This document shows, one piece after another, positions 4,602-27,655 of a stretch of 32,000 nucleotides of DNA (its first letter is position 1; each line of letters begins with the position of its first letter). A program made the position numbers and the translations under genes. Source of the stretch: Microcystis aeruginosa NIES-843 (GTDB taxonomy: Bacteria; Cyanobacteriota; Cyanobacteriia; Cyanobacteriales; Microcystaceae); the NCBI RefSeq assembly GCF_000010625.1, contig NC_010296.1, forward strand, positions 3,180,001 to 3,212,000, in the 5' to 3' direction. A model generated the notes under the pieces. It saw nothing but the letters and a program-made list of their open reading frames with translations, ran no database searches and was not told where the DNA came from.

Positions 4602-5582
4602 GTGAAGGAAGCGGCAACGGCGATCATTTTAGTATTGGGGGCGGTTTTAGATTATCTGATCGGCGATCCCTGGGGATGGATTCATCCGGTGCAGGTGATG
4701 GGGGCGATTATTGCCGTTGCCACAAAAGTTATCCTTAATTGGATGCGGGAAAAAATCGGCCAACGTTTAGCGGGCATAATTCTGGGACTGGGTTTAATTA
4801 TCTTGACTGGGGCCTTAACTTGGCTAGGAATCCAGTGGTTAGATCAGGTCAATTTGCTGCTGAGTTACCTAGTACAAGTGATTCTCCTGGCCAGTTGTTT
4901 AGCCGGCAGAAGTTTACGCAGGGCTGCCGAAACCGTCACCGCAGCTTTACAAGCGGAAAACATCACCTTAGCTCGTTGCCAACTAAGTTTATACGTTGGT
5001 CGCGACACAGATAATCTCGGCCGGGAAGAAATCCTCCGCGCCCTATTAGAAACCGTCAGTGAAAATGGTGTGGATGGAGTTACCGCGCCGCTTTTTTATG
5101 CCCTTCTCGGTGCTTTTCTGGGTGTGGGGCCAGTTCCCCTCGCTTGCGCTTATAAAGCCGCTAGTACCCTCGATTCGATGATTGGCTATCGTCGGCCACC
5201 CTACACCCATATGGGTTGGTTTAGTGCCAAAAGCGAGGATGTTTTGACATGGCTACCTTGTCGTTTGACGGTATTAACTCTCGCCCTAATTTCGGGCCAG
5301 CCGGGGCGGGTTTTAAGCATTTGTTGGCGCGATGCCCGTCGGGATCCTAGTCCTAATTCTGGTTGGAGTGAATGCGTCTATGGGGCGATTTTGGGGGTGC
5401 AATTGGGGGGTAAAAATCAATATCGGGGCCAGATTGTGGAAAAACCTTTATTGGGCGATAACCTCAAACCGATTACCGTCAAAACCGTCGAACAGGCTTT
5501 GAATTTAACTCGTACTTGTGTATTACTTTGGCTAGCGATCGCTGTCAGCTGCTTGATTGCTAGAGATTTTGCTCAATTGTAG
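4602..5582 (+). CDS. cbiB: Adenosylcobinamide-phosphate synthase CbiB/CobD
   Basis: 326-aa polytopic protein starting at GTG. The motifs HPV..MG, GRDT..L, E..SENGVDGVTAPLFY and GY and the overall length fit CobD/CbiB. Confidence 0.9.
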   Translation: MKEAATAIILVLGAVLDYLIGDPWGWIHPVQVMGAIIAVATKVILNWMREKIGQRLAGIILGLGLIILTGALTWLGIQWLDQVNLLLSYLVQVILLASCLAGRSLRRAAETVTAALQAENITLARCQLSLYVGRDTDNLGREEILRALLETVSENGVDGVTAPLFYALLGAFLGVGPVPLACAYKAASTLDSMIGYRRPPYTHMGWFSAKSEDVLTWLPCRLTVLTLALISGQPGRVLSICWRDARRDPSPNSGWSECVYGAILGVQLGGKNQYRGQIVEKPLLGDNLKPITVKTVEQALNLTRTCVLLWLAIAVSCLIARDFAQL

Positions 5583-6243: not shown

Positions 6244-6362
6244 GTTCGGCTGAGCTCACGGCCGAAGCCCACACCCGTTACAGTAGAGCAGGAAGTCGCC
6301 TTCCCACCCCCTGCTTCAAAACCGGACTTACGACTTTCGCCGTATCCGGCTCCTGAGTAACT

Positions 6363-8046
6363 AGGGTTTGCTGAAAAAGTCATTGAAAAGTACAGGTCTC
6401 TTAATCAATGATTTCACTTAGCTACAAGCATAAGCTTTAGTTGTTGATTAATTTTTAAATTATAACTTATCCTAATCATTGACCGAGAAAAAGTGCTGTT
6501 TTTCCATTTCAGACATAAAAAAGCCCAAAAAACCTGCCTCAACAGGTTAGAAAGATTCATGACTAAAAAAGTAATAGCAATCGCTGAAAAGGAAGTATGA
6601 GGAAGTTTAGCCATCACTTTACCTAAGCTAAATCTTCTTTTCCCTTGTCCAAATTTGCCCTCTATACAATTCCGAATCCTCTCATCATCAGTAGCTTGTT
6701 TCTTTTGTTCTTTACTAACATTTTTGGCTGGTCTTCCTAATGGGGGACCACTGATTCTGATTCCCCTTTCTTTACACCAAGCTCGGTTTTCTCTGGTTCG
6801 ATAAATTTTGTCCACATGAACTGATTCTGGATAGTATCCTGTATAGTCATAATAAGCTTCTATTTGTGCTTTTAAATCTCCCGATTCATTAAAGTTATCC
6901 CAACTAATCCGGTCTAAAAATATGTAACCATCTATACAGCTTGCTGAGAATTTGGCCCCAAATTCTACGGGTTTTCCAGCTTTTCCTCTGACTATCGGAC
7001 GGATGTGGGGTTGAGTTAAGCTGACAATTCTGTCTTCAATACTCTGTTTGTTATTTTGGTACATCCAGAGTTGTTGGCGATAAACTTCTGTGACTACTAA
7101 TAACAGTTTATAGTCTCTTTTTTTCAAGCTTTGTAGAGAGGCTCCTTCTGCTAAAAGTTGTTCAATATGGTCGAGATTTCTTTTCAGATATTGCAGTTGT
7201 CTTTTTAGAGCTTTTCGTCTTTGTTTGACGGTAGGTTTTCTTTTTTTTGCTACTTCTAAATAACTTTTTCTGGCCAGGAGACGATAGGTTCTCGGTTTTT
7301 GAACAAGTTTTCCTTTTATAGTTTCCTAGAGAATATCAATAATTTTTTCGGTTTGTTTTCTTCCTTGATTTAACAGGTTTAAATCCGTAGGATAACTAAT
7401 ATCTGCGGGCGCACAACTGGCATCTAAAATTAATTTACCTCGATTTTCTGGTTGACTTTGGGTTTCGCTCTCTAACTTTTTTTCGGTGTTTTCTTCTTCT
7501 TTTATTTCTCTCGAATTTTTGACCATAAAGCGATTCACTTTATTAATTAGTTCCCGAGTGATTCTTTCTCGAAAGTGAACCAACATTGACGCTTCAAACT
7601 GGGGTTCATTGCTGTAGGCTGAAAACCCCAAGAAGTATTGTAAATAAGGATTTTCCTTGATTTGTTCTACCGTTTCTCTATCGCTTGTTCCTAATTTTTC
7701 TTTAATAATTAATGCTCCTAGTGCTGTCCTAAATGTTTTGGCGGGTGCGCCCATTTCTTCTGAAAAAAGTGATGCGTATTCCGCTTCAAATTCTGACCAG
7801 GGAATGAGGTTGGCCATAATTACCCAACGATTATCTTGGGATAATTTCCCCTCAAAGGGCAGCTCGAAGTTTTCTGGTGGGGTTGAGGGTAACTCGCTTT
7901 TACGGTACATTAGCACTAATTAGAGAAGATGCAAGGGTGATGCAAGGGTTTTAAGAGATTCTAGCAGATTTAAGTGCATTTGGGAAGCTCTCAATCAAGC
8001 TAAAAGCCCTTTCCTGTAAGGTTTTTAGATTTATTCAGCAAACCCT
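6363..8046 (-). mobile_element. IS5-family insertion sequence (1684 bp) with an apparent 4-bp duplication AACT
   Basis: Terminal inverted repeats AGGGTTTGCTGAA (6363-6375) and TTCAGCAAACCCT (8034-8046). AACT is present at 6359-6362 and 8047-8050. Confidence 0.85.
6414..7916 (-). pseudogene. IS5-family DDE transposase (InsH-like N-terminal domain), 500 codons with one in-frame TAG at 7326-7328
   Basis: ORFs 7326-7916 and 6414-7127 are in the same frame. The stretch between them is open (ETIKGKLVQKPRTYRLLARKSYLEVAKKRKPTVKQRRKALKRQLQYLKRNLDHIEQLL...). Only the single TAG breaks it. Confidence 0.85.
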
Positions 8047-8749
8047 AACTAGGCTACTGTCATTAGTAGAATAATAATGGGAATTATTATTTCCTTGTCT
8101 ATTCAACCCTCTTGGCTGTATCCCCACCAGACAAGATTGTTGGTTTTAGGGCGTATATGACCGTTGATTGTTGCTTAGACTTCCTAGTTACCCGTCCTTT
8201 GTCAGCATATCTTTGATATTACTCAAAGCCTTGGCTTTTAAGGACATCCTCTCCCTCTATTGACTTGCGGATGGTTTCCTACTGCCCCGAACGGGCAGAG
8301 TCAATCAGGGTTACTTCGTTCCCTATAACCATTGGTTGAACCCTTAGGATGATACTGTCCACAACAGAGTAACGGGAATGCCTTACTGATAGTGGTATGA
8401 GCTATCAGCCCCAACTCTGTTAACTTTTGTTTCGAGCCTGTCAGCCTTTTGGCTCGTGGGTGTTGACGATGGTTAATTCGTATCTTCGCCCCAGGGCTAT
8501 CCATAGGTTCTGGCTCAACGGGTTTCTGATTTAGGCTATCAGATACCGCTTTTTTTTCCTCGCTCACTACCTCAGATGTACCAAGTCTAAAGCAGCAGGA
8601 AATGCCGTCACTCTAGGCATCTAGAGGACAGGACTAAGGTTATTACTAACCCGCACCTGTAGGGTTATAAAGTTATCAAGGTACTACATTTACCAAGCGG
8701 CTAATCCTCTAAACGTCTTACTGTCTAGTTTCTAGCCAACGAATCGCAC

Positions 8750-8840: not shown

Positions 8841-9575
8841 TTAGCGTCCGAGGGCGTGTAATCCGTTAATAATTTCGGCACAGCGCTCGGTAACTGCCTG
8901 TAAAGCTTCTCTTTTGTTAGAAATCGGTGGCGGCAGCACTTCCCCGATGCGAATAGTTAAGGGGATACTATGGGGAAAAGAAGAACCTTTTGGAAAAATC
9001 TTTTCTGTCCCCCACAAACTGACGGGTAACAGGGGAACTCCCGCTTTAGCGGCAATCATCGCCGCGCCTAGTTTTGGTTGATGGATCAATCCGTCCTCGG
9101 TGCGCGTTCCCTCCAGAAACAATCCCACTGCCCAGCCCGCCGCTAATGCTCCCATCGCCGCCCGAATTGCCCCACGATCACCACTGCCGCGTTTGACGGG
9201 ATAGGCCCCATAAAGAGCGATCGCCTGTTTTAAAATCGGGATGGTAAATAATTCTTCTTTAGCCATATAAGCTACGGGACGACGCACGGCACAGGATAAT
9301 AGGGGTGGATCGAAGTAACTGGCGTGATTGCAGACGATAATCAGAGGATGACGCCGGGGGACATTTTCCACTCCGTAAACGCGACCGCGAAAATAGCCGT
9401 GTAGGGTTGGGCTAACGATCGACCATTTAAAGAGATGATATAAAACTAAACTGGCAAAAGGTTCTCGCTCTTGAGGCTGGTTCATGACTGACAATTGTTC
9501 CCTAGACATGGAAAAGCCCTCGGGAGTCTTGCCGTGTTTCGACCCCAAGGACTTTGCTTTCTTCTCACTCCTCAC
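8841..9575 (-). CDS. plsC: 1-acyl-sn-glycerol-3-phosphate acyltransferase (PlsC family)
   Basis: Acyltransferase motifs CNHASYFD (HX4D) and FLEGTRT. The true start may be the ATG 22 codons downstream (MSREQL..., about 9509). Confidence 0.85.
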   Translation of the reverse strand: MRSEKKAKSLGSKHGKTPEGFSMSREQLSVMNQPQEREPFASLVLYHLFKWSIVSPTLHGYFRGRVYGVENVPRRHPLIIVCNHASYFDPPLLSCAVRRPVAYMAKEELFTIPILKQAIALYGAYPVKRGSGDRGAIRAAMGALAAGWAVGLFLEGTRTEDGLIHQPKLGAAMIAAKAGVPLLPVSLWGTEKIFPKGSSFPHSIPLTIRIGEVLPPPISNKREALQAVTERCAEIINGLHALGR

Positions 9576-9896
9576 ACAATTAAAATATATAGCAATTTAT
9601 GGGTTAGGGAAAGGTTAAGCGTGCCGCTTTCTTAACTGGCATAATTACTTAGCTAGGGTTGAGAGCGGCAAAAGGATTAGCAAGATGTGTCCGACTAAAT
9701 CCTGTTTAAAAAGTATAGGAAAGTTGAGAGGGGTGCGTGGGTAGCGGCTTAGCAGCAAGCGGGGAGAAACAATCCATAACTTGGGAGTTAATCGCACTAT
9801 TAAAAACGGATTTGGTGTAATTAATTTTGCTTAGGTATTGAAAAAAAGTTGGGCTAAAATATAAAGGCCAAATCTAGTCAGAAAAAGAGAATTTTT

Positions 9897-10097
9897 ATGG
9901 AAAAACAGGTAAATTGTGCTGTAGATTGCCTAAATGGTTGTATTTTAGGCGATAAATGCCCCAATCAAGCTCATGCCGCTGAAGCAGCCAAATTCATTGC
10001 CGAAACTTCTTTGGAAAAGATGCTAGAAATGGCAGAAGCCGCTAGACTAAAAAAACTGACGCAACCGACCCAATGGATTATTCCCGATGATTTCTAG
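9897..10097 (+). CDS. Small Cys-rich hypothetical protein (66 aa)
   Basis: ATG-initiated ORF with CAVDCLNGCILGDKC followed by a helical tail. I recognise no family. Confidence 0.45.
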   Translation: MEKQVNCAVDCLNGCILGDKCPNQAHAAEAAKFIAETSLEKMLEMAEAARLKKLTQPTQWIIPDDF

Positions 10098-10836
10098 GGT
10101 TTGGCCGGGGAACGGGGAACGGGGGTGTTGACGATGGTTAATTCGTATCTTCGCCCCAGGGCTATCCATAAGTTCTGGCTCAACGGGTTTCTGATTTAGG
10201 CCATCACAGCAATTCTCATTTTAAAAAGTAACAAGTGATACAGACAGAAACAAAGCTTTAAGCAAGCTACAAAATGCGCTCCCGCGAGTGCGACTGCATC
10301 GCAGAGAAGTGAGTATATAGAGTATTTATACTCAAAATATTTGAAAGATGGGAGAAATCTAGAACAAAAGTTCTCTACATCAGAAAGAGAACCAAATAAA
10401 AATTGATGATTGTTGTCTGTTGAGGTAAAATTATTAAGTTGGAAATATTAATTAATCAAACTGTTCTGCGATGACGAAAAAGGCTGTGACTTGAGAAATT
10501 CCTGAATTAATACAATTTTTAGTTCAAGAATTACATGACTTACCCGATGACAGAAAACCAGGAAACAATACCAAATATCAGGTAGAAGATGCAGTTAAGG
10601 CGGCTTTTTCGGTTTTTTTTACTCAGTCACCTTCTTTTTTAGAGCATCAACGTTTGATGAAAAGTAGTAAGGGAAAAGATAATGCTTCAAGTTTATTTGG
10701 TATCAAAAAAATACCTGGTGATAATCAAATCAGAAACCTGTTAGATCCTATCCCAGCTGCCACAATATTTGGCTCTTTTCAACAAGTCTATCAATGGTTA
10801 AAAAAACCGGGAGTTATTAAAAAATTTTTCTACTTA

Positions 10837-11870
10837 TAGCAATTCTTGGAGCTATGAGGTACAATAGAAAGTAAATAGACAAATAATAGAACTTACCAGC
10901 TTCCTATGAGACCCTATTCCGTAGATTTTCGCCAAAAAATTATCGATGTCTGGAAGAAAGAAAAAATTTCCATTCGAGGACTAGCCCAGAGATTTGACGT
11001 GGCTAAAAGCTTTATTCAGAAGTTATTGAAGCAACATAAAGAAACAGGAGATATCCGTCCTCGTCCGCAAGGGGGAAGTCCGCCAACCAAGTTAAATAGT
11101 GAACAACTGATAATTTTAATAGAAATCATCGAAGCTAACAATGATGCAACTCTCGAAGAATTATCGGACTTACTGTATGAAAAGACACAGGTGAAAGTCA
11201 GTAGAGCCACCCTGGGGCGGCTTACGCAAAAACTCAATTACAGTTTCAAAAAAAAACACTACACGCGGCGGAAAAAGAAAGTGACAGGGTACAGCAAAAA
11301 AGAGTGGAATACTGGTCAGAAGTTCGGGAAATTGAGGCATCAAAACTAATTTTCATCGATGAATCGGGGGTAAATTTAGCCCTTTTGAGACTCTATGCTA
11401 GAGCCTTAATTGGCCGAAGAGCTCGGGGAAGAAAACCACAAAAAAGAGGGAGAAATATTTCAATAATTAGTGCTATAAGCTGAGAAAAAGTTGTCGCATC
11501 AGTCAACATATACGGTGCAGTGGATGCGGTAACATTTGAAGGATTTATTCTAAAGGAAGTGCTGCCAAAAATTAAAGAAGGAGACTGTCTGATCATGGAT
11601 AACGCCAAGATTCATCTCGGAGAAATGGTCAGAGAAATAATCGAACAAGAAAAAGCTAGACTCATCTATTTACCTCCTTATTCTCCCGAATTCTCTCCTA
11701 TTGAAAACTTTTGGTCAAAAGTGAAAGCGACGTTAAGAAAACTGAAGGCGAGAACTTACAAAGACTTAATAGAAGGGATTGAATTGGCTATGTTAGAAGT
11801 TACTCAAAAAGATATTCGCAATTGGTTTACTCACTGTTGCTACTGTACCTCATAAGTCAGAGAATTGCTA
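10837..11870 (+). mobile_element. IS630-family element no. 1 (1034 bp), TA target duplication
   Basis: ~29-bp terminal inverted repeats: TAGCAATTCTTGGAGCTATGAGGTACAAT versus the reverse complement TAGCAATTCTCTGACTTATGAGGTACAGT. Flanking TA at 10835-10836 and 11871-11872. Confidence 0.85.
10906..11855 (+). pseudogene. IS630-family transposase; needs a -1 shift at an A9 run (~11247) and has an in-frame TGA at 11481-11483
   Basis: An HTH N-terminal ORF is followed, in the -1 frame, by ...KLIFIDESGVNLALLRLYARA...ISAIS*EKVV...DCLIMDNAKIH...PPYSPEFSPIENFWSKVK (DDE_3 motifs). Confidence 0.8.
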
Positions 11871-13854
11871 TAGATGAGGAAATTTTAATAGCTTTAGATG
11901 GTACGGAATATTTTTCTTCAAAGAAAATTAGTTGTCCCCATTGTAATTGCCGCAATCCTCGTAATGGAACGACAACTTATTTTCATGGTTGCGTCACGCC
12001 AATTGTGGTTTCTCCTGAGCAAAAACAAGTGATTAATTTAGAACCAGAATTTATTAAAAAACAAGATGGGCAGCAAAAACAAGATTGTGAAAATGCGGCT
12101 GTTAAAAGATGGTTAGATAAGAATCATCAAAAGAAGTATGGTTATCCTGTAACCCTGTTAGGAGATGACTTATACTCTCGCCAACCTATCTGTGAGTTAG
12201 CTCTAAAACAAGGTTATAATTTTATTTTTGTTTGTCTTGAAACTTCTCATAAAACCTTATATGAATGGCGAGAATTTTTAGAAAAAAGTGGAGAAGTTAA
12301 AACCGTAGAAAAGAAACAATGGGATGGACGAAAGAATCTCATTTATCGTTATCGTTATGTTTCTAGAGTTCCTCTGAGAGAGGTCGAGTCAAGTCTCGAA
12401 GTTAATTGGTGTGAAGTCACGGTCATTAATGAAAAAACACAGAAAATTATCTATCAAAATAATTGGATTACCAATCATCAAATTACTGAAAATAATGTTG
12501 AAAAAATTGTCAAAGCTGGACGCAGCAGATGGAAAGTTGAGAATGAAGGAAATAACGTTCTTAAAAATCACGGTTATAATTTAGAACATAATTTTGGTCA
12601 TGGTCAAAGTCATTTATGCGAGTTCTTGTTGTCTTTAAATTTACTAGCTTTTTTATTTCATACCGTTTTAGATTTAGTTAATCATACTTATCAAAAGATT
12701 CGTGAGTTATTAGTTACTCGCACCAGTTTTTTTAATGATATTCGTACTTTATTAAAATATTTTTGGTTTAAGAATTGGTCAGAGTTTTTCTTGTTTATTC
12801 TTACCGAATATGTCCCGCTCAAAAAAATAAATTCTAGTTAAAAATGTCAATTTTTCGAGAGAAGGAAAGATTATTTTATTCATTGAAAAAACCACAAATT
12901 AGGTCAGAATTTCAGCTAAATTTATGAGTTGAGATAAGTTTTTTATGGGCAGATATTTTAAAACTGTCTCTTGAAGCTAATTATGATGATTATCTTGAAA
13001 AAAAATGATAATTAGACAGAAGTTCTCTTGTTCACATAGAGAACTTTATCTTCTTTTGTTTTCAAAATGAGAATTGCTGAGGCCATCAGATACCGCTTTT
13101 TTTCCTCGCTCACTACCTCAGATGTACCCGGTCTCAAGCAGCAGAAAATGCCGTCACTCTAGGCATCTAGAGGACAGGACTAATACCAAATTTCTAAATT
13201 CCTGACAGACATAGAGCTTCTAAAATCCAAGACCATCCCGTTAAATACCCGATAGTGTCATTGGATAAACGATTTAAAAGAGCATCGAGTTTATCTCTTA
13301 AAGCATCAAGAGATTCAAAAGTTTCCCATGCCAGAAAATTTTTCAGGTACAGCCAAACTCTCTGTTGCGGGGTTAACTTCAGGACAACAAGAAGGTTGAT
13401 AAAACAAGATAATATTGTCGGGAATTTCTAAGTGTCCCGCCATATGTGCAGGAGCGTTATCTACTTGTAAAATATGTAATTCATTGGGAAAAGCTGGCGA
13501 TAGTTGTAATAGATATTCTCCGAAACAATCCCCATCTAAATGGGAGAATTCATAGAAGAAGCTTCTGCCCTGTCGAGGCTCTACAGGCCCGTACAGCCAA
13601 AAGCATTGGAAGTTATCTTGAAAATTACCAATCGGCTTAACTCCGAAAAGAGTTATTTTATTCCGAGCCATAGTGTGACCACCAAATCTACTTTCATCCT
13701 CGCACCAAAAACTTACTTTCTCGTAACGCTTTACTTTCTCGCTTTCCCTCTCTAGTAAAGCTTTTAGTCGTTTAGATAAGTTCGCTTTAAACTCATCTAC
13801 TTCGCCAGGCAATTGTCTCGGATTTCGTGGTCTAGGTACTTTTAATTTTTAATT

Positions 13855-15117
13855 GGGAGCATCTCACTTGTGCAATGAGTATTAATGCTTATAGCCGTCA
13901 AAAACTAGAAAATCTCGAACTTTATCACAAAGAGAAATGAGATTATAATAGTTATAACTTACGATTCAGAATATATCTCGATGGGAGGAACAATCCAATG
14001 TTATCAGAAAATGAAAAAAGAATTCAAGAGTTATCCCGAGAGTTGGGAGCGTGTCTCTATGAGCAATCCCAAATTAAGAAATTTAATAACTTGGGAGAAA
14101 TAGAGGAGACGGTCAGAGATTTAATGATTCAGTATGTTAACCCAGAAATCGGTATTTTTTTATCAAAACAAGTACAGAAGAAACCGCCGGTCGGACGAGA
14201 AAAGTGAAAAGTATTTTGGGGGAATTACCAATTACAGAAAAACAAGCGAAGAAGTTAGAAGTAAAGCCGAGAACTCAGATGAGTCCAATGTTAGAGAAGA
14301 ACTGTTTGCTATTAAGTGGCGATGAATCCTATGAGAAATCGGAGCAGAAAATCAAATCATTGACAGGAATTGCTGTTTCTCACAGTACCCAACAACGCCT
14401 CGTACATCGCTATCATTTTGAAGAATTACCGTCTAACCTAGAAGTCGAAGTCGAAGAAATGAGCATAGATGGCGGTAAGGTACAACTGAGAACTCCCAAG
14501 GGAGAAGCCTTAATTTGGCGTGATTATAAAGCAGTGAGTTTTCATCAACTGGGGGTAGCGGCTTTTTTTCAAGATAACTCGGCTTTATTAGATTTGGTTA
14601 ATTCTCAAGTTTTGGTTAAACCTTTAATTTGTTTAGGAGATGGACATGATGGTATCTGGAATTTATTTCGTCAGATAGGAGAGAAACATGAAAGAATTGA
14701 AATTTTGGATTGGTATCATTTAATCGAAAACCTCTATAAAGTTGGCGGGTCATTCCAGCGAATTGAGGAGGTAAAATGTTTTCTATGGAAGGGGGAAGTG
14801 GATGCTGCTATCTCTTGTGCGCGAAGGATGGTCAGAGCCTCAAGTTGAGAATTTTATTACTTATTTGAACAAGCATAAACATCGAATTGTCAATTATGGT
14901 TATTTTCAAGAAGAGGGGATTTCCATTGGTTCTGGCTCTGTGGAATCTCAGGTGAAACAAATTAGTTTTCGTGTTAAAATTGCCGGTGCAAGTTGGAATT
15001 CTGGCAATGTACCGCAAGTCCTTCGTCATCGCTGTGCCTATCTGAATGGTTCTCTTTTTTAACTTTTTTATTTACCTCATTAAGCATAAATGCTTAATGC
15101 AAAGGTGAGATGCTCCC
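13855..15117 (+). mobile_element. ISKra4-like insertion sequence (1263 bp) with an 8-bp duplication TTTTAATT
   Basis: The terminal repeats are GGGAGCATCTCAC and GTGAGATGCTCCC. TTTTAATT is present at 13847-13854 and 15118-15125. Confidence 0.8.
13998..15062 (+). pseudogene. Transposase of the ISKra4-like element, spread over three frames (13998-14207, 14204-14848, 14802-15062)
   Basis: The consecutive ORFs contain CLGDGHDGIWN and LDWYHLIENL motifs. I assigned the family from memory of ISKra4-type proteins and did not check it. Confidence 0.6.
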
Positions 15118-15516
15118 TTTTAATTGAGCTTCCTAATTCCTCTCTAACGAGACGATAAACTGTTGTATAGCTGACGGAAATTTCTCGAACGACCGAGAGC
15201 CAAAAATAAATCTCTTTATAGCTGGTAAAACCCACTGGGTCTTTTAATTCGTTTTGTAAAAGAGCGACTTCTTCTACCGAAATCTTTTTCGGTCTTCCTG
15301 GTGGGTTTCCTTCAGATAATAATCGCTCGATTCCTCCTTTTTTGTAAAAACTTAACCAGCGATGGATTGTTCTTTCCCCTCGTCCCATTAATACCGCTAA
15401 ATGGCGAACCGTCTCTACCTCCCCCATCTTCAAAAAATATAAGGACTGTACTTTAGCGTAGTGGACTGTTTCAGCTAAAATAGGGCAATAGCTCGAACAA
15501 GCAGAGGACATCAATC

Positions 15517-16785
15517 ATGGGAAGAGGTCGGCGAGATAAAGTCAATCTAACAGGGGAACAAAGAGAAAACCTCGAACAAATCAGTCGTAATGGCTATGCA
15601 CCAGCTAAAAAAATTCTCCACGCTCGGATTTTGCTGATGTGTGACGAGGGAGAACAGGCGAAAAGGAAATGGACAGATGAAGAAATAGGCGAAGCTTTAG
15701 AAGTTCATAGAAATACAGTGGGACGTATTCGTCAAAGATTTCTTCAAAAAGGCGAAAAACCAGCATTAGAACGGAAATCGAGAAAAACTCCCCCCACTCC
15801 GGCAAAAGTTGATGGAGCCGCCGCCGCCCAAATCATTGCCCTGTGCTGTTCGGAGCCACCATCTGGCCGAGCCGAGTGGACAATCCGACTATTAACCTCG
15901 GAACTCAAACAAAGACAAATTATCACCGAGATTTCCAGTCCAACGGTGTGGCGTACTCTAAAAAAAACCAATTACGCCCTTGGAAAACCCAAAGATACTG
16001 TATTCCGGAACAGGATTTAGCCCGATTTGTTGCCCAGATGGAAGTTGTCCTTGACCTGTATGGCACTCACACCATTTTTCTTTATTCGCGTCACAACGAA
16101 CACCGGCTTGGCAAGCATTCGAGCGTGGATGTCTGTCATGGATTTAGAAATTTGGTATCAGCCATCGGAAGAAGAACCGTTAATCGCGATGGATGAAGCA
16201 TCAAAGCAACTACTTGGAGAAGTTTACCCTCCGATACCCATGCAACCTGGACAAGATAAAAAAGAAGACTATCACTATAGTCGTGAAGGGGTTCAAGCCT
16301 TGTTCATGTTTTTTGACCCCCATCGAGGATGGAGACGGGTGAGTAACCGAGATAGTCGAACCCGAATAGATTGGGCAGAAGAAATTCGTCAATTATTGGA
16401 TGTGGACTATCCAAAGGCTCGAAAAGTCAAGCTCGTCTGTGATAATCTCAACACTCATAACATAGCCTCGCTTTATGAAGCATTTCCAGCACCCGTTGCT
16501 CATCGTTTAGCTAGAAGACTGGAAATTTATTACACACCTCGTAATGGTAGCTGGTTAAATGTAGCCGAAACTGAACTAAGCGTCTTATCGAGGCAATGTT
16601 TAGATAGAAGGATTTCTAGCAAGGAAGAACTGAAAAGGGAGATAGAAACCTGGCAAAAAGAACGTAATCAGACTGCATCTACAGTAATATGGACGTTTAC
16701 GACCAGCGATGCTAGGGTCAAGCTGAAACATCTTTATCCTGTGTTTGAGGAGGAGGAATCGGGAGAATCTATTGCACCAAATTAG
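15517..16785 (+). pseudogene. IS630-family transposase; A8 slip site at ~15960 and interrupted by a 95-bp insertion
   Basis: The HTH ORF is followed, in the -1 frame, by LKKNQLRPWKTQRYCIPEQDLARFVAQMEVVLDLY. After removing 16061-16157 it continues QPSEEEPLIAMDEASKQ...CDNLNTHN...YTPRNGSWLNVAE. Confidence 0.8.
16061..16155. mobile_element. 95-bp miniature insertion at a TA site inside the IS630 no. 3 transposase gene
   Basis: Deleting 95 bp plus one TA gives the in-frame sequence VVLDLYQPSEEEPLIAMDE. One end, read as reverse complement, is TACCAAATTTCTAAATCCATGACAGAC, about 25/27 identical to the terminus of IS630 no. 2 at 13184. The other end is only weakly repeat-like. Confidence 0.65.
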
Positions 16786-16900
16786 CTGAAACAGTCCAGT
16801 AGGCTAAACTACTTTTTTGTTGTTTCATTAATTCTTTTAAATCTTCTACTGACTCAACAATATCAATTTTGGGTACGACTGGCATCGCTAATTTATACAC

Positions 16901-17089
16901 TTAATGGGACTTAGGCGTTTTCGGTCAGCAAAAAAGGCTCAAACCATTACGGGACAAAGGGTTAACCTCGATTTATGATTTTCCTTGATATATCTGGGTT
17001 TCAGCGATTTTGGGCTTCTCGAAGTAAATCCCAAGCGGGGATTGGAGTTGAGGCTTTTCTCGATTTGTTTTTTGTCTAAGTCCCATTAA
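16901..17089. mobile_element. 189-bp MITE in the 5' leader of IS630 no. 2
   Basis: 14-bp perfect inverted termini TTAATGGGACTTAG and CTAAGTCCCATTAA. No coding capacity. Confidence 0.6.
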
Positions 17090-17142
17090 TCATCTTTTCT
17101 ATAAGTATGCCATAGTTTTTGAAATTTGGTATAAGGCTATTA

Positions 17143-17228
17143 AGCTTAGACGCACTTACATTGCACTTTAATATCCTGGAACGCCTTGTAGATAGGGATA
17201 CGAGTAGGAAACTTAAATGCGTCTAAGC
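17143..17228. mobile_element. 86-bp mini-MITE inserted into intron copy 2
   Basis: Inverted termini (A)GCTTAGACGCA and TGCGTCTAAGC. TTA is present on both sides (17140-17142 and 17229-17231). Removing it recreates the GGCTATTACTAACCC sequence seen in copy 1. Confidence 0.55.
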
Positions 17229-17335
17229 TTACTAACCCGCACCTGTAGGGTTATAAAGTTATCAAGGTACTACATTTACCACGCGGCTAATCCTCTAAAC
17301 GTCTTACTGTCTAGTTTCTAGCCAACGAATCGCAC

Positions 17336-17434
17336 CACACCCCACACCCTACTTCCCCATCACCCCACACCCCACACCCTACTTCCCCATCACCCCACTT
17401 CCCCAATCCCCCATCACCCCACACCCCACTCCCA
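17336..17434. repeat. Degenerate heptamer array (CCCCACA, CCCTACT, TCCCCAT, ...) flanking the 5' end of intron copy 2
   Basis: Read directly. Confidence 0.9.
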
Positions 17435-17550: not shown

Positions 17551-18714
17551 ATGAAACTAGCGTCACGAGTCAATCAAGTTACTCCCTCCCTTACCCTAGC
17601 TATCGACTCTCTGGCCAAGGAAATGAAGAAAAACGGCGAAGATGTCTGTAGTTTTAGCGCCGGGGAGCCAGATTTCGACACACCCACTCACATCAAAGCT
17701 GCCGCGAAAAAGGCCCTCGATGAGGGAAAAACTCGCTACGGACCGGCTGCCGGGGAAGCGGGGTTAAGAAAAGCCATCGCCGAGAAATTGCTGCGGGATA
17801 ATCAACTAGCATACAATGCCGATAATGTCATCGTCACCAATGGCGGTAAACAGTCTCTCTACAATCTGATCATGGCGTTAATTGAAGCGGGGGACGAAGT
17901 AATTATTCCCGCACCCTACTGGTTGAGTTATCCTGAAATGGTGACGTTAGCGGGGGGAACATCGGTTATAGTGAACACTAGCCTAGAGAATCACTATAAA
18001 ATCACCCCCGAACAGCTAGAAGCGGCAATTACACCGAAAACTAAATTATTTGTCCTCAATTCTCCCTCTAATCCCACCGGTATTGTCTATACTCCCGAAG
18101 AAATCGCAGCTTTAGCAAAAATTGTGGTTGAAAAGGATATTTTAGTGGTTTCTGATGAAATTTACGAGAAAATCCTCTACGATGGCGCAATTCACCGCAG
18201 TATCGCTTCTTTTGGTCCGGAAATCTTTCAGCGCAGTATTATTAGTAATGGTTTTGCTAAAGCTTTCTCGATGACGGGGTGGCGCGTCGGTTACATAGCA
18301 GGACCGGTGGAAATTGTCAAGGCTATGACTAAGATCCAAAGTCATAGTACCTCCAATGTCTGCACTTTTGCCCAATACGGTGCGATCGCTGCTTTAGAGA
18401 GTCCCCAAGATTGCATCGAGGAAATGGTCAAAGCTTTTAGCGAGCGCCGACAGTATATTTTAGAACGAGTGCGAGCCATTCCCGGACTCAATTGTCCTAC
18501 TCCCAACGGTGCTTTTTATGTGTTTATCGATATTAGTCAAACTGGTTTAAAATCACGGGATTTTTGTCAGAAACTGCTCGAAACCCAAAAAGTAGCTGCT
18601 ATCCCCGGTATTGCTTTCGGTGCCGATGATTGTATTCGTCTTTCCTACGCTACAGACCTAAAGACGATTGAAAAAGGATTCGATCGCCTTGATCAGTTTA
18701 TCGGCAGTTTGTAG
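17551..18714 (+). CDS. Pyridoxal-phosphate-dependent aminotransferase, class I (aspartate aminotransferase type)
   Basis: 387 aa. The motifs [33 protein letters not shown] and [14 protein letters not shown] (PLP lysine context) fit AspAT class I. Confidence 0.9.
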
Positions 18715-19288: not shown

Positions 19289-19470
19289 GGGAGCATCTCA
19301 CCTTTGCAATGAGCATAAATACTTAGTGGAAAAATAGGCTTTTCGAGGGTAATTCTTGTTTTAATTCTCCATGTACGCAGTCTTTAAAAGCCTCTATTTC
19401 GTTCCAAGACACGATTAAGAGTGGCTTTTAGGCTAAGTATAATTACTTATCGCGTAAGTGAGATGCTCCC
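19289..19470. mobile_element. 182-bp MITE derived from the ISKra4-like element, 8-bp duplication AACAGAGC
   Basis: It has the same GGGAGCATCTCAC termini as 13855-15117. AACAGAGC is present at 19281-19288 and 19471-19478. Confidence 0.85.
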
Positions 19471-19497: not shown

Positions 19498-19679
19498 GGG
19501 AGCATCTCACCTTTGCAATGAGCATAAATACTTAGTGGAAAAATAGGCTTTTCGAGGGTAATTCTTGTTTTAATTCTCCATGTACGCAGTCTTTAAAAGC
19601 CTCTATTTCGTTCCAAGACACGATTAAGAGTGGCTTTTAGGCTAAGTATAATTACTTATCGCGTAAGTGAGATGCTCCC
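19498..19679. mobile_element. Second copy of the same 182-bp MITE, apparently identical, 8-bp duplication GCTCAATC
   Basis: GCTCAATC is present at 19490-19497 and 19680-19687. It lies 27 bp from the first copy in the same orientation. Confidence 0.85.
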
Positions 19680-20074: not shown

Positions 20075-20168
20075 CGGACAGGATAATTCCGACGGATAAG
20101 TAACAGTGAGATTGAGTCATCTAAGCCAATTAATACCCGCCGATAAAACTAATTTTTCAACAGTAAAC

Positions 20169-21259
20169 GGCCAATTCAAGTCTGAATTGCATCACTGTCT
20201 GATCTACCTTTATAGAATACCTCATTCGGGGTACGATAGTCAAGACATTTTCGAGGACGATTGTTAATCAAGTTTACGGCTCTTTCCACCTCCTCTGGCT
20301 TAACGATTTTAAAATTCGTTCCCTTGGGGAAAAATTGTCTTAACAGTCCCTTGGTATGCTCGTTTAATCCCCTCTCCCACGAATGATAAGGAGTAGCAAA
20401 ATAAAAATCTGCTCCTAGTTTCTGACTCAACTCTTGATGTCCACAAAATTCTTTGCCGTTGTCACAAGTAAAGGTTTTTCTTTTGTCAGGGTGAATCTCT
20501 TGAAAAAGTTTTTCTGTGACTCTATTGATTTCCGATGCGGTTTTGTTTTTGGCTAATCCTGCTCCTAAAAATTTCGAGGCTTTATCTACATGAGTAACGA
20601 GAACTCCTAGATGATTGCCTCCAATCATTGTGTCACTTTCCCAATGACCGATTTCAGTTTTCTGGTCAGCAATTACTGGTCGCTCGCTGATATCTACACG
20701 CCCTGGAATCCCTCCACGCTTACTTTTTGCTCCGCCTCGACTCTTTCTTTGACAAAGCCCCCGGCGTAAATATTTCTGGTACTCTCCACATCCGTGATAG
20801 TTCTGATAGATCATTTGATAGATGGTTTCGTGACTGAGAGATTCTTGACTGGCTCTTTTCAGACGACCTGCTATTTGTTCGGGACTATGATAATCTTTCA
20901 ATCCTTCTTTGACCAACTCTAAGGCTGACTCGCTGACATTTTTAAAGGGTTGTTTGGCATTTTTTCGCCTTGTCTCGCTTTGAGCTTGTGCTGTGTCAGG
21001 TAGATAGCAGCCAAGGGAACTTTGATTCCTTTTTAATTCCCGTGATATTGTGCTTTGATGACATCCGAGCCAGACGGCCATTTGCCGTTGAGATAAATTT
21101 CCCTCCTGACTAAGTTGGTAGAGCAAGTTTCTTTGTTCTATGTTAAGATGTTGGTGGCTCATTTTGGGTCTGATTTGTTTTTGTTAATGATCAGACAGTA
21201 CCTGATGAGCCTTTCTTTGTCAACTCTTGAGGTTGATGCGTTTCATTTTTGAATTGGCG
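20169..21259 (-). mobile_element. IS30-family element, copy A (1091 bp); no target duplication visible
   Basis: The ends are GGCCAATTC... and ...GAATTGGCG, the same termini as copy B. The flanks are AAC and CAG. Confidence 0.85.
20176..21162 (-). CDS. IS30-family transposase (328 aa)
   Basis: An N-terminal HTH (LSQRQMAVWLGCHQSTISRELKRN) and a DDE core (HWESDTM..., TCDNGKEF, WERGLNEHTKGLLRQF) are typical of IS30. The protein is identical to that of 21945-22931. Confidence 0.92.
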   Translation of the reverse strand: MSHQHLNIEQRNLLYQLSQEGNLSQRQMAVWLGCHQSTISRELKRNQSSLGCYLPDTAQAQSETRRKNAKQPFKNVSESALELVKEGLKDYHSPEQIAGRLKRASQESLSHETIYQMIYQNYHGCGEYQKYLRRGLCQRKSRGGAKSKRGGIPGRVDISERPVIADQKTEIGHWESDTMIGGNHLGVLVTHVDKASKFLGAGLAKNKTASEINRVTEKLFQEIHPDKRKTFTCDNGKEFCGHQELSQKLGADFYFATPYHSWERGLNEHTKGLLRQFFPKGTNFKIVKPEEVERAVNLINNRPRKCLDYRTPNEVFYKGRSDSDAIQT

Positions 21260-21847: not shown

Positions 21848-22938
21848 CGCCAATTCAAAAATGAAACGCATCAACCTCAAGAGTTGACAAAGAAAGGCTC
21901 ATCAGGTACTGTCTGATCATTAACAAAAACAAATCAGACCCAAAATGAGCCACCAACATCTTAACATAGAACAAAGAAACTTGCTCTACCAACTTAGTCA
22001 GGAGGGAAATTTATCTCAACGGCAAATGGCCGTCTGGCTCGGATGTCATCAAAGCACAATATCACGGGAATTAAAAAGGAATCAAAGTTCCCTTGGCTGC
22101 TATCTACCTGACACAGCACAAGCTCAAAGCGAGACAAGGCGAAAAAATGCCAAACAACCCTTTAAAAATGTCAGCGAGTCAGCCTTAGAGTTGGTCAAAG
22201 AAGGATTGAAAGATTATCATAGTCCCGAACAAATAGCAGGTCGTCTGAAAAGAGCCAGTCAAGAATCTCTCAGTCACGAAACCATCTATCAAATGATCTA
22301 TCAGAACTATCACGGATGTGGAGAGTACCAGAAATATTTACGCCGGGGGCTTTGTCAAAGAAAGAGTCGAGGCGGAGCAAAAAGTAAGCGTGGAGGGATT
22401 CCAGGGCGTGTAGATATCAGCGAGCGACCAGTAATTGCTGACCAGAAAACTGAAATCGGTCATTGGGAAAGTGACACAATGATTGGAGGCAATCATCTAG
22501 GAGTTCTCGTTACTCATGTAGATAAAGCCTCGAAATTTTTAGGAGCAGGATTAGCCAAAAACAAAACCGCATCGGAAATCAATAGAGTCACAGAAAAACT
22601 TTTTCAAGAGATTCACCCTGACAAAAGAAAAACCTTTACTTGTGACAACGGCAAAGAATTTTGTGGACATCAAGAGTTGAGTCAGAAACTAGGAGCAGAT
22701 TTTTATTTTGCTACTCCTTATCATTCGTGGGAGAGGGGATTAAACGAGCATACCAAGGGACTGTTAAGACAATTTTTCCCCAAGGGAACGAATTTTAAAA
22801 TCGTTAAGCCAGAGGAGGTGGAAAGAGCCGTAAACTTGATTAACAATCGTCCTCGAAAATGTCTTGACTATCGTACCCCGAATGAGGTATTCTATAAAGG
22901 TAGATCAGACAGTGATGCAATTCAGACTTGAATTGGCC
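21848..22938 (+). mobile_element. IS30-family element, copy B (1091 bp), 3-bp duplication AAT
   Basis: The ends are CGCCAATTC... and ...GAATTGGCC. AAT is present at 21845-21847 and 22939-22941. Excision restores the AAA+ reading frame exactly. Confidence 0.9.
21945..22931 (+). CDS. IS30-family transposase (328 aa), identical to copy A
   Basis: The translation in the ORF track is identical to that of 20176-21162. Confidence 0.92.
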   Translation: MSHQHLNIEQRNLLYQLSQEGNLSQRQMAVWLGCHQSTISRELKRNQSSLGCYLPDTAQAQSETRRKNAKQPFKNVSESALELVKEGLKDYHSPEQIAGRLKRASQESLSHETIYQMIYQNYHGCGEYQKYLRRGLCQRKSRGGAKSKRGGIPGRVDISERPVIADQKTEIGHWESDTMIGGNHLGVLVTHVDKASKFLGAGLAKNKTASEINRVTEKLFQEIHPDKRKTFTCDNGKEFCGHQELSQKLGADFYFATPYHSWERGLNEHTKGLLRQFFPKGTNFKIVKPEEVERAVNLINNRPRKCLDYRTPNEVFYKGRSDSDAIQT

Positions 22939-23374
22939 AATTAAGTGCAGAATAAGGGAAGGGTTGTATATTTCTTAATCCCCACTCATCAAATACTAAT
23001 TTTTCAAGGACTGAAATTTTACTAGCTATTAGTAATTCTTCCTTAACTGATTCAGGAACGACTAATTGTTCCATTGAAAAATTCGGCTTTTGGCTACGAT
23101 ACTGCTCCGCTCTTTCCTCTAGGGAAATAGAATTTGCTTTACTGACAGACGCTTTGTTACTATTTTTGCTCAGATTTTTGACGGAGTTTAAATCTACACT
23201 TGAGGAAACAATTAAAGGTAAATTTTCTTTTCCGATTTTTTCTAAATAGCTTTGCCAAGCTGCATATATTCTGGTTTTGAAAACAAGAAAATCTTTTTCA
23301 CTTTCTGTGGTGGTTGGTATATCCTGAAATATAATTTCGTCTTCCATGTTGTTTGCTTAAATTTTTGTATTGAC

Positions 23375-26233: not shown

Positions 26234-27655
26234 GGTAGGGCTGTTTCATTCTCCCATCAGAATATCAAAAGTAAAAGCGATCAATATCAGGTAAAATGAT
26301 AAGTGACCGCCAACCTTTTAAATATATGTTGAGCTTAATAGAAAAACTGAAACAAGTCAAGGACTTTCGGAAAGATAAAGGAAAAAGACACCCTTTATGG
26401 ATAGTATTAGTAGTAATAATACTGGGAACAATGCTAGGATACTCAGGTTATAGAGAACTAGGAGAGTTTGCTAAAAATAATCGGCACAGGCTCAGTAAAG
26501 AATTTAACATAATTCCAGAAAGAGTCCCATCCTATTCAACAATTAGAAGGGTAATGATGGGAGTTGACTGGCAGAGTTTGTTAAAAATGTTTAATGAATG
26601 GGCATTAGAAGAATATGGACAAAGAGATGATATAAATTGGCTAGGTATGGATGGAAAAAGTCTCAAAAACACCCTAAAGAATCCTAATAATGAACAACAA
26701 AATTTTATCATGTTTGTCTCATTGTTTAGTCAAGAAAGTGGATTAGTATTACACTTAAAAAGAATCGAAAACAAAAAAGGGTCTGAAATCGACGAAGGGC
26801 AAGCTATAATTGAGGATTGCTCTCTCCAAAATAAAGTTTTTACTGGCGATGCTTTACACTGTCAGAAAAAAACAATCAGCTTAATAGCCAAGAGTAAAAA
26901 TGACTATGTTATCACCGTTAAAGGAAATCAGAAAAATCTTTATAAGCGAATACAAGACCTGAGTAATTCCTCAAAGCCAGAAAGTTGCTTTCTTGAACAA
27001 GATAATAGTCATGGACGAAAAATATCAAGAAAAATAGAAGTTTTTAAAGTGAGAAAAAATGAAAGACAAGGGTTTGAAAATCTGCGAAGAGTTATTAAAG
27101 TAGAAAGAAAGGGTAGTCGCGGGGATAAAACCTATGAAGAAACAGCTTACTATATCAGTAGCCTAACCGAATCCGCTCAAGTATTTGCTAAAATTATTCG
27201 AGGACATTGGAAAATAGAAAATCAGTTACATTGGGTAAAAGATGTAATTTTTGAGGAAGATAAAAGCGAGATAAGTGATTTTCAAGCGGCCAGCAATTGG
27301 TCAATTCTCACAACTATAGGATTGAATCTTTTCAGAGGTTTGGGTTTTCTCTCAATAACAGAGGGACAGAGGTGGTTAGCTGAACGTTGGGAAAAACTGA
27401 TAGTTTTATCGACGTAAGAAGCAGAAAAATTAGCTAAATTAACAGGATGTACTCTCAGACAATTTCAAGAAAGATAGGCTTTTAGTGGCTTGGAAACAGG
27501 CTTTATCAATTTATTCATAATCAATATTGGCAGAGGATTAAAGATTAGTTATTGTCACTAACTCTTTTGATTAGAAAAAGATAAACTTGAGAATTTTCAT
27601 TCAAATTTATTGACTCAAAATCAGCTGTAATTAATTTAAATGAAACAGCCCTACC
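26234..27655 (+). mobile_element. ISAs1-family insertion sequence (1422 bp), 8-bp duplication TTGATAAG
   Basis: Inverted termini GGTAGGGCTGTTTCATT and AATGAAACAGCCCTACC. TTGATAAG is present at 26226-26233 and 27656-27663. Confidence 0.88.
26296..27417 (+). CDS. ISAs1-family (H-repeat-associated type) transposase, intact
   Basis: 373 aa. DFRKDKGKRHPL, GMDGKSLK, TGDALHCQKK and RGHWKIENQLHWVKDV are hallmark motifs of the family. Confidence 0.9.
   Translation: MISDRQPFKYMLSLIEKLKQVKDFRKDKGKRHPLWIVLVVIILGTMLGYSGYRELGEFAKNNRHRLSKEFNIIPERVPSYSTIRRVMMGVDWQSLLKMFNEWALEEYGQRDDINWLGMDGKSLKNTLKNPNNEQQNFIMFVSLFSQESGLVLHLKRIENKKGSEIDEGQAIIEDCSLQNKVFTGDALHCQKKTISLIAKSKNDYVITVKGNQKNLYKRIQDLSNSSKPESCFLEQDNSHGRKISRKIEVFKVRKNERQGFENLRRVIKVERKGSRGDKTYEETAYYISSLTESAQVFAKIIRGHWKIENQLHWVKDVIFEEDKSEISDFQAASNWSILTTIGLNLFRGLGFLSITEGQRWLAERWEKLIVLST

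Follow-up and report, generated by a model that had tools for sequence, protein, structure and literature searches.

Transposable elements that have inserted into one another form nested clusters, well known from the nests of insertion sequence (IS) within IS in IS-rich bacteria and, classically, from the nested retrotransposons that lie between maize genes. The nest analysed here lies in a window of 32 000 nucleotides (nt) from Microcystis aeruginosa NIES-843 (NC_010296.1; positions are window coordinates), in which an original prediction, made from the letters alone, had placed eight mobile insertions within a single intron fragment. Like the known clusters, it has guests that interrupt hosts, duplications of host sequence that flank the guests, an order that can be read, and growth in neutral DNA; unlike them, it was seeded by the remnant of a group II intron, and intermediate states of its growth are visible in other strains. 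It is three levels deep and comprises four IS families and three elements that resemble MITEs (miniature inverted-repeat transposable elements).

According to the sections used here of the published account of NIES-843, IS and MITE sequence makes up ∼11.8% of that genome, and the table of elements includes the IS630-family members ISMae21–29, the IS5, IS30, ISAs1 and IS605 families, and MaeMITEs of 176–233 bp (PMC2779907). Taken with the corresponding sections on PCC 7806 (PMC11448079), the work describes element kinds of the same sort in the same genus, active on laboratory timescales. Both are genome-wide catalogues, whose sections used here mention neither this locus nor nests of several levels; the families that they list for NIES-843 do not include ISKra4 (PMC2779907), and the term is absent from those on PCC 7806 (PMC11448079). 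A literature search likewise found neither the locus nor any nested IS in Microcystis described. The twintrons of Trichodesmium (PMC4649490) are similar in that a cyanobacterial group II intron is the landing pad for mobile elements. In twintrons, however, the guests are introns that are spliced sequentially and the host is functional (PMC4649490); the guests of this nest are DNA transposons, and the intron that holds them is truncated and dead.

Results

The nest is very probably a genuine stepwise pile-up of eight transposable elements in a dead intron remnant of 296 nt. All eight predicted insertions exist, and the host and guest relations proposed for them are all correct (Table 1). Terminal inverted repeats were found in each of the eight guests, and empty sites were directly observed for all of them except IS630 no. 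1, for which the evidence is the restored host protein. The duplications proposed for the IS4-like element, IS630 no. 2, the ISKra4-like IS and IS630 no. 1 were borne out, and those of the remaining guests required some correction, as set out below. When the guests are peeled off computationally, the intron pieces, IS630 no. 2 and the IS4-like open reading frame (ORF) rejoin as expected.

Empty sites were read from further Microcystis genomes or from sister copies of the interrupted host, and families were assigned by NCBIfam, Pfam and Rfam models with their curated cutoffs (gathering scores for Rfam). Comparison sequences, namely Microcystis assemblies, metagenome contigs and copies of elements, carry L0xx labels; L044 is contig VYLL01000127.1 of a metagenome-assembled genome, L006 is GCA_002933835.1, and L043 and L012 are metagenome contigs, L012 being short. 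The closest relative of the window is the complete genome AP019314.1 (GCA_003945305.1), which is 99.95% identical over shared DNA; we take it to be M. viridis NIES-102 and call it NIES-102 throughout. Across about 30 kb, the window and NIES-102 show at least nine differences in the presence or absence of insertions.

Table 1. Position and structure of the nested elements, the intron copies and the flanking genes (window coordinates).
Feature	Position	Strand	Host, size and remarks	Terminal repeats	Target duplication
Intron copy 2, piece 1	10120–10206	−	innermost retained part; 97% identical to copy 1 8455–8541		
Intron copy 2, piece 2	13089–13183	−	95% identical to copy 1 8551–8637		
Intron copy 2, piece 3	17135–17142	−	8 nt, from IS630 no. 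2 to mini-MITE; aligned to copy 1		
Intron copy 2, piece 4	17232–17337	−	includes intron 5′ end; CCCCACA-type heptamer repeats next to it		
IS4-like element	10207–13079	+	in remnant; 1837 bp without guest	CAGCAATTCTCATTTT (16 bp, perfect)	AGGCCATCA (9 bp), 10198–10206 and 13080–13088
IS630 no. 1	10837–11870	+	in IS4-like transposase gene; 1034 bp		TA, 10835–10836 and 11871–11872
IS630 no. 2	13184–17131	−	in remnant	TACCAAATTTC	TAA, 13181–13183 and 17132–17134
ISKra4-like IS	13848–15117	+	in IS630 no. 2; core 13855–15117 (1263 bp)	GGGAGCATCTCAC	TTTTAATT (8 bp), 13840–13847 and 15118–15125
IS630 no. 3	15462–16798	+	in ORF A of IS630 no. 2; 1246 bp without guest		GTAG, TA core
88-bp element	16070–16157	.	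in IS630 no. 3; non-autonomous		TCA, 16067–16069 and 16158–16160
181-bp MITE	16905–17085	.	in upstream end of IS630 no. 2	TGGGACTTAG	TTAA
Mini-MITE	17143–17229	.	in remnant; 87 bp	AGCTTAGACGC	TA
Intron copy 1 (reference)	6277–8749	−	complete ORF-less group II intron with IS5-family element at 6362–8047		
66-aa gene	9897–10097		flanks nest; present in many Microcystis assemblies		
Aminotransferase gene	17551–18714		flanks nest; present in many Microcystis assemblies		

The intron remnant

Joined together, the four pieces of the remnant (intron copy 2) amount to 296 nt and are colinear with positions 8455–8749 of a second intron in the window (copy 1), with ∼97% identity and one 1-nt indel; the growth of roughly 290 nt into 7.2 kb was thus correctly predicted. 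Domain V/VI of copy 1 scores 55 bits with RF00029 (gathering score 40; 6277–6354, minus strand), and its domain I–IV region, in the stretch homologous to piece 2 of the remnant, gives a weak match to RF01999 (group-II-D1D4-2) at 8536–8603, whose 26.7 bits (E = 0.0024) fall short of the gathering score of 36. No intron-encoded reverse transcriptase was found in copy 1, which measures ∼783 nt without its IS5 guest; its only long ORFs are the two halves of the IS5 transposase, which match NF033578, and it is therefore an ORF-less intron. The nested fragment, identified by 92–97% identity to copy 1, is a 5′ remnant without domain V/VI. Both copies have the 5′ start GUGCG on the minus strand (8745–8749 and 17333–17337). 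The truncation of copy 2 falls at 10120, directly after GGGGAAC-type repeats, and this same point is where synteny breaks among strains.

Both intron copies lie within (GGGGTGT)n heptamer arrays, and the heptamer repeat is suggested to be the intron homing site. Copy 1 (2473 nt) is precisely absent from NIES-102, and it may either have arrived with the IS5 element inside it or have been lost by NIES-102. In L044, a deletion of ∼85 bp between short GGGT repeats (∼4659–4671 of that contig, corresponding to window 10101–10185) removes the left end of the remnant.

IS630 no. 2

The oldest guest is IS630 no. 2, which is decayed. Peeled with corrected boundaries, it measures 1144 bp and is identical at 1143 of 1144 positions to an unnested copy at the same locus in L007. 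A 1144-bp IS630-family element, ISMae22, appears in the part of the NIES-843 catalogue used here, its length being that of the peeled IS630 no. 2 (PMC2779907). The empty site is seen in intron copy 1 and in L012, and a copy of the element in L041 likewise has a TAA duplication. A conceptual translation joined across the frameshift site scores 178.6 bits with the IS630 model NF033545 (cutoff 100). Membership of IS630 nos. 1, 2 and 3 in this family is further indicated by their terminal repeats, by duplications centred on TA (TA, TAA and GTAG) and by sizes within about 1.0–1.4 kb.

Four host frames had been predicted to be restored exactly on removal of a guest with one duplication. Two of these, the IS4-like host and IS630 no. 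3 across its 88-bp guest, behaved as proposed. ORF A of IS630 no. 2 is continuous across the IS630 no. 3 site (...KSSLAYAKVQ...) only with the corrected boundaries. At the ISKra4-like site the claim fails: even unnested copies of IS630 no. 2 have their two ORFs in separate frames there, and removal of the guest thus has no unbroken frame to bring back. All copies of IS630 no. 2 compared also share another break in frame close to the C-terminus, and we leave this element as one that is presumably decayed or non-autonomous.

Two alternative treatments of IS630 no. 2 were rejected. A peel in the manner of the original prediction, with 8-bp and TA duplications and the apparent repeat ends, left the ORFs offset by −1 and the N-terminus frameshifted, and was dropped in view of the true empty sites. 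Programmed frameshifting was considered for the offset between ORF A and ORF B at the ISKra4-like site and set aside: in unnested copies the run there is no longer than A4, and the offset is +1.

The IS4-like element and IS630 no. 1

The empty site of the IS4-like element (TTTAGGCCATCAGATACC) is present in L002, L007 and L044. Excision of IS630 no. 1 with one TA restores the protein of its IS4-like host exactly: the peeled ORF of 444 codons is identical at 438 of 444 positions, with no gaps, to an intact 444-aa protein (P0001, in a cluster of 391 members), and has TGA as its eighth codon, a position at which the intact protein has Leu. IS630 no. 1 itself scores 188.1 bits with NF033545 (cutoff 100) when its conceptual translation is joined across an A-run frameshift site; its sequence includes a frameshift site at an A9 run and a single in-frame TGA. 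TA likewise flanks a sister copy in L027.

The family name of the host needs revision. The transposase falls far below the cutoff of the IS4 model (NF033591; 21.7 bits against 152) and narrowly misses Pfam DDE_Tnp_1 (PF01609; 22.1 against 23), while the NCBI label, where one is given on relatives of 74–84% identity, is ‘ISNCY family transposase’. Judged by these matches, ‘IS4-like’ was a misnomer, and the element would be better called ISNCY-labelled; we retain the earlier name as a handle.

A host could have transposed into the locus already bearing its guest, mobilised by a transposase supplied in trans, in which case the order would be wrong for that pair. This is made conceivable by the intact terminal repeats that the hosts have kept and by the many identical sources of transposase in the genome. 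In the case of the IS4-like element and IS630 no. 1, however, the chimeric ORF that the two create (11837–12841) occurs at this locus only in the public data searched, which argues against their composite arrival. Similarly, IS630 no. 2, as host of the ISKra4-like IS, IS630 no. 3 and the 181-bp MITE, is found in place and unnested in other strains, and the 88-bp element occurs in none of the ten sister copies of IS630 no. 3 examined. We consider composite arrival very unlikely.

The ISKra4-like IS and the 181-bp MITE

The ISKra4-like IS has repeats that are perfect for 13 bp at the tips and similar over about 37 bp. Its transposase, a conceptual join of three ORFs that is ∼70 aa shorter than the model, scores 265.7 bits with NF033572 (cutoff 205). 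The empty site GGTAC-TTTTAATT-GAGC was found in L007 and in five other copies of the IS630 no. 2 type. Among other copies of the element, that in L035 has a clean 8-bp duplication, and that in L032 has 6 extra nt (TGATAT, ∼2352–2357) at its left end. The window copy is 99.9–100% identical to those in L034 and L035.

The same broken three-ORF layout recurs in the copies with comparable gene calls (window, L034 and L036). Copies in the window, L032, L034, L035 and L036 are 95–100% identical across loci, and the element is polymorphic between sibling strains. Because copies with the broken layout are near-identical across loci and polymorphic between siblings, these elements must, as far as the sequences indicate, be mobilised in trans or expressed by recoding.

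Two further MITEs of 183 bp, 100% identical to each other and 27 bp apart (19289–19470 and 19498–19679), bear ISKra4-like terminal repeats, and each has an 8-bp duplication of its own, AACAGAGC and GCTCAATC. In NIES-102 the first is missing; the second (19498–19679) is present, with the 87-bp mini-MITE about 20 bp upstream instead.

The MITE at the upstream end of IS630 no. 2, predicted to be 189 bp long, in fact comprises 181 bp with a TTAA duplication, as judged from its empty site, CAC-TTAA-TCATC, in L007, L002, L044 and L045. The element has 100% identical copies at two distinct loci, and one such copy lies elsewhere, in L034. This element and the 87-bp mini-MITE are typical MITEs, being short, devoid of ORFs, bounded by terminal repeats and a duplication, and present in near-identical copies.

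IS630 no. 3, the 88-bp element and the mini-MITE

IS630 no. 3 went into the TA at the centre of a near-palindrome, CTTTAGCG-TA-GGCTAAAC, which is host sequence (15449–15461 and 16799–16811). The outer 10 bp on each side resemble an extension of the inverted repeats but belong to the host palindrome, as they are found in unnested copies of IS630 no. 2. The TA proposed as the duplication therefore stands as the core of a GTAG duplication within a palindrome, and the outer 10 bp are no part of the guest. The site is empty in L002, L007, NIES-102 and five further copies of the IS630 no. 2 type, from four species genomes. IS630 no. 3 scores 212.1 bits with NF033545 (cutoff 100; conceptual translation joined across an A-run frameshift site) and is 99.8–100% identical to at least nine copies in NIES-102, whose flanks are CTAC or CTAG.

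Programmed slippage is known for the IS630 family. The ORF A/ORF B overlap lies at an A9 run in IS630 no. 1 and at an A8 run in IS630 no. 3, and the intact sister copies of IS630 no. 3 shown all have the same layout of two ORFs, of 167 and 248 aa. By its sequence, the two-ORF layout of IS630 no. 3, with its overlap at an A-run, would fit programmed slippage.

The guest of IS630 no. 3 had been taken as a 95-bp element with a TA duplication. Ten intact sister copies of its host, in which the empty site reads ATGGCAC-TCA-GCCATCGG (also given as ATGGCACTCAGCCATCGG), show that it is 88 bp long with a TCA duplication. Excision of 91 nt, that is, the element and its duplication, restores ORF B of IS630 no. 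3 (...DLYGTQPSEEEP...); the 97-nt excision implied by the original prediction, 6 nt off, also keeps the frame, by luck, at the cost of two codons. The reported resemblance of its end to that of IS630 no. 2 was sound, the right end matching at 27 of 29 positions. No second copy of the 88-bp element was found in the sequences compared, so that the one seen here is the only one among them.

The mini-MITE is present in three 100% identical copies, two of them at other sites, each with a TA duplication. Its boundaries were judged from these three sites; the earlier reading of 86 bp with a TTA duplication fits equally well at this site alone, and the comparison of all three gives 87 bp with TA. The site is empty in L007, L002, L044, L045 and NIES-102.

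Order of events and distribution among strains

IS630 no. 2 is in the remnant in L002, L007, L044, NIES-102 and the window, and it is the sole guest there in L002, L007 and L044 and, for the part covered, in L045. The IS4-like element, IS630 no. 1, the ISKra4-like IS and the 181-bp MITE are confined to the window and NIES-102, apart from the contig L043, which spans 10834–14191 and has four junctions covering the IS4-like element, IS630 no. 1 and the ISKra4-like IS. NIES-102 thus has five of the eight elements, with junctions identical to those of the window. IS630 no. 3, the 88-bp element and the mini-MITE occur at this locus in the window only, all three being absent from NIES-102. Two other insertions are found in the NIES-102 nest and not in that of the window. 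At 2 bp from the mini-MITE site lies an element of 1.5 kb related to the IS4-like element, with 51% protein identity to it and a duplication TACTAACCC; the ISKra4-like IS contains a 187-bp MITE.

Sequence decay follows a gradient of age. IS630 no. 2 has frame disruptions, and the IS4-like gene and IS630 no. 1 have a nonsense codon each; at the young end, IS630 no. 3, the ISKra4-like IS and the MITEs are 99.8–100% identical to other copies. The nesting order, the independent presence and absence across strains, and the decay therefore all give the same order of events, and the claim that an order could be reconstructed was justified, as was the expectation that comparison of strains would reveal intermediate nesting states (L002, L007 and L044; NIES-102). 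No state between that with IS630 no. 2 alone and that of NIES-102 was found in the genomes and metagenome contigs scanned. A metagenome scan with the pattern GGGTTTCTGATTTAGGCCATCA gave no match; with a second pattern it gave two contigs, both with IS630 no. 2 only.

On this evidence, the ISMae22-sized IS630 no. 2 would have been the first to enter the truncated, non-functional ORF-less group II intron remnant between the 66-aa gene and the aminotransferase gene. In the lineage shared with NIES-102, the IS4-like element probably then entered the remnant and IS630 no. 1 the IS4-like transposase gene, and in that same lineage the ISKra4-like IS and the 181-bp MITE would have entered IS630 no. 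2. The last steps, in the lineage of the window itself, would have brought IS630 no. 3 into IS630 no. 2 and the mini-MITE into the remnant, with the 88-bp element in IS630 no. 3. Each event is an ordinary DDE-transposase cut-and-paste or copy-in, with a target duplication typical of the family; hosts are inactivated by their guests and then decay.

A mis-joined or collapsed assembly might be suspected in a region made up almost entirely of repeats present in many copies. In the independently assembled complete genome AP019314.1, however, five of the eight elements have identical junctions, and four junctions recur in the metagenome contig L043. Moreover, a duplication typical of the family is present at every guest, with matching empty sites for seven of the eight, and mis-assembly would not produce these. 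Because of the independent assemblies and of the duplications paired with empty sites, an assembly artefact is barely credible and is excluded for practical purposes.

Discussion

We conclude that the nest is real, that it can be resolved, and that it exemplifies a phenomenon already known; its element families are known too, it is an ordinary outcome in a transposon-packed genome, and no new mechanism is revealed by it. Several points weigh against the stepwise account. At the left end of the ISKra4-like IS, seven extra nt, TTTAATT (13848–13854), separate the repeat from the duplication and are unexplained by simple insertion; excision of the element with one 8-bp duplication leaves these nt behind, and they are absent from the empty site. 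They represent either donor flank carried along or a small slippage duplication, and the same choice applies to the extra nt in L032. Composite arrival of IS630 no. 3 with the 88-bp element would be possible in principle, both being absent from NIES-102, so that their relative order rests on nesting alone. The contig L012, one of the two sources of the empty site of IS630 no. 2, is short, is closer in its intron part to copy 1 than to copy 2 and may be chimeric; copy 1 gives the same answer. Nesting yields a partial order only, and the timeline of transposition ‘bursts’ once read from it goes beyond what can be recovered. Finally, the step of neutral retention, considered next, is an inference and not a measurement.

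Insertions into dead DNA would be cost-free to the cell and so would be kept, and since each would enlarge the neutral target, the nest would snowball. Such safe-haven retention in selectively neutral DNA, put forward in the original prediction, is the standard explanation for such nests and is sufficient for this one; because much of the DNA outside is coding, neutral retention is enough to account for the excess of insertions in the nest.

The alternative offered alongside it was a true local hotspot, in which remnant or IS DNA attracts transposases through structure, palindromes, local hopping or target preference. Of the nine insertion differences between the window and NIES-102, five fall in the 7.2-kb nest, which makes up 24% of the DNA compared, and the remaining 23 kb holds four; the binomial p is 0.04. 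This enrichment is marginal, with p rising to 0.10 when IS630 no. 3 and its guest are counted as one event, and it vanishes if only non-coding or non-essential DNA outside is counted as available; the flanks likewise show four recent insertion polymorphisms. Target density was rejected as its cause, TA being equally frequent inside and outside the nest (70 and 69 per kb). Further indications of a hotspot are that two related ISNCY-type elements independently entered the same 296-nt remnant, that IS630 no. 3 took a near-palindromic site, and that L006 has an independent nest of IS630 in IS630 just downstream of the same 66-aa gene. The palindromic site, however, is empty in all other copies of the IS630 no. 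2 type seen (L002, L007, NIES-102 and five more). We therefore regard a true insertion hotspot as unlikely.

A broader form of this idea, that the stretch just downstream of the 66-aa gene, remnant included, is a genuine hotspot of both insertion and rearrangement, is consistent with the two independent ISNCY-type hits, with the separate nest in L006, an unrelated strain, and with the break in synteny at exactly this point in most strains, and seems to us quite unlikely. If true, it would imply that transposases of several unrelated kinds are drawn in by some feature of structure or sequence, for which the structured DNA of the intron or the G-rich heptamer repeats (the apparent intron homing site) would be candidates.

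Downstream of the 66-aa gene, gene order varies among the Microcystis strains L001–L010, with an MmeI restriction system, FtsW, aconitase or IS nests at this position. The nest in L006 (10560–13118) is a minus-strand IS630 split by a copy on the plus strand that is 97.4% identical to IS630 no. 1. In L003 and L010, synteny breaks right after the GGGGAACGGGGAACGGGGGT repeats (GGGGAAC/GGGGGT, to 10126), and other strains lose similarity a few bases earlier. From these alignments, window positions 10097–10126 appear to be the boundary of a plasticity zone.

The nest may be of use as a strain-typing marker, as a benchmark for tools that annotate IS and MITEs, and as a small natural record of recent movers, namely IS630 no. 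3, the ISKra4-like IS and the MITEs of 87 bp, 181 bp and (ISKra4-related) 183 bp. It also illustrates the pitfalls of judging duplications and restored frames by eye: a palindrome at the target passed for a longer inverted repeat, and an excision that was 6 nt off kept the frame.

Other features of the window

A Cyano-1 RNA lies at 9508–9581. An ISAs1-family IS at 26236–27653 (NF033564, 265 bits), with a duplication of about CTTGATAAGGG, is absent from NIES-102. Two 100% identical, inverted IS30-like copies of 1096 nt (20164–21259 and 21848–22943), with HTH_38 and rve ORFs, flank 588 bp that carry a fragment of an AAA-ATPase gene; the pair is also present in NIES-102, and its layout resembles a composite transposon or an inversion-prone structure.

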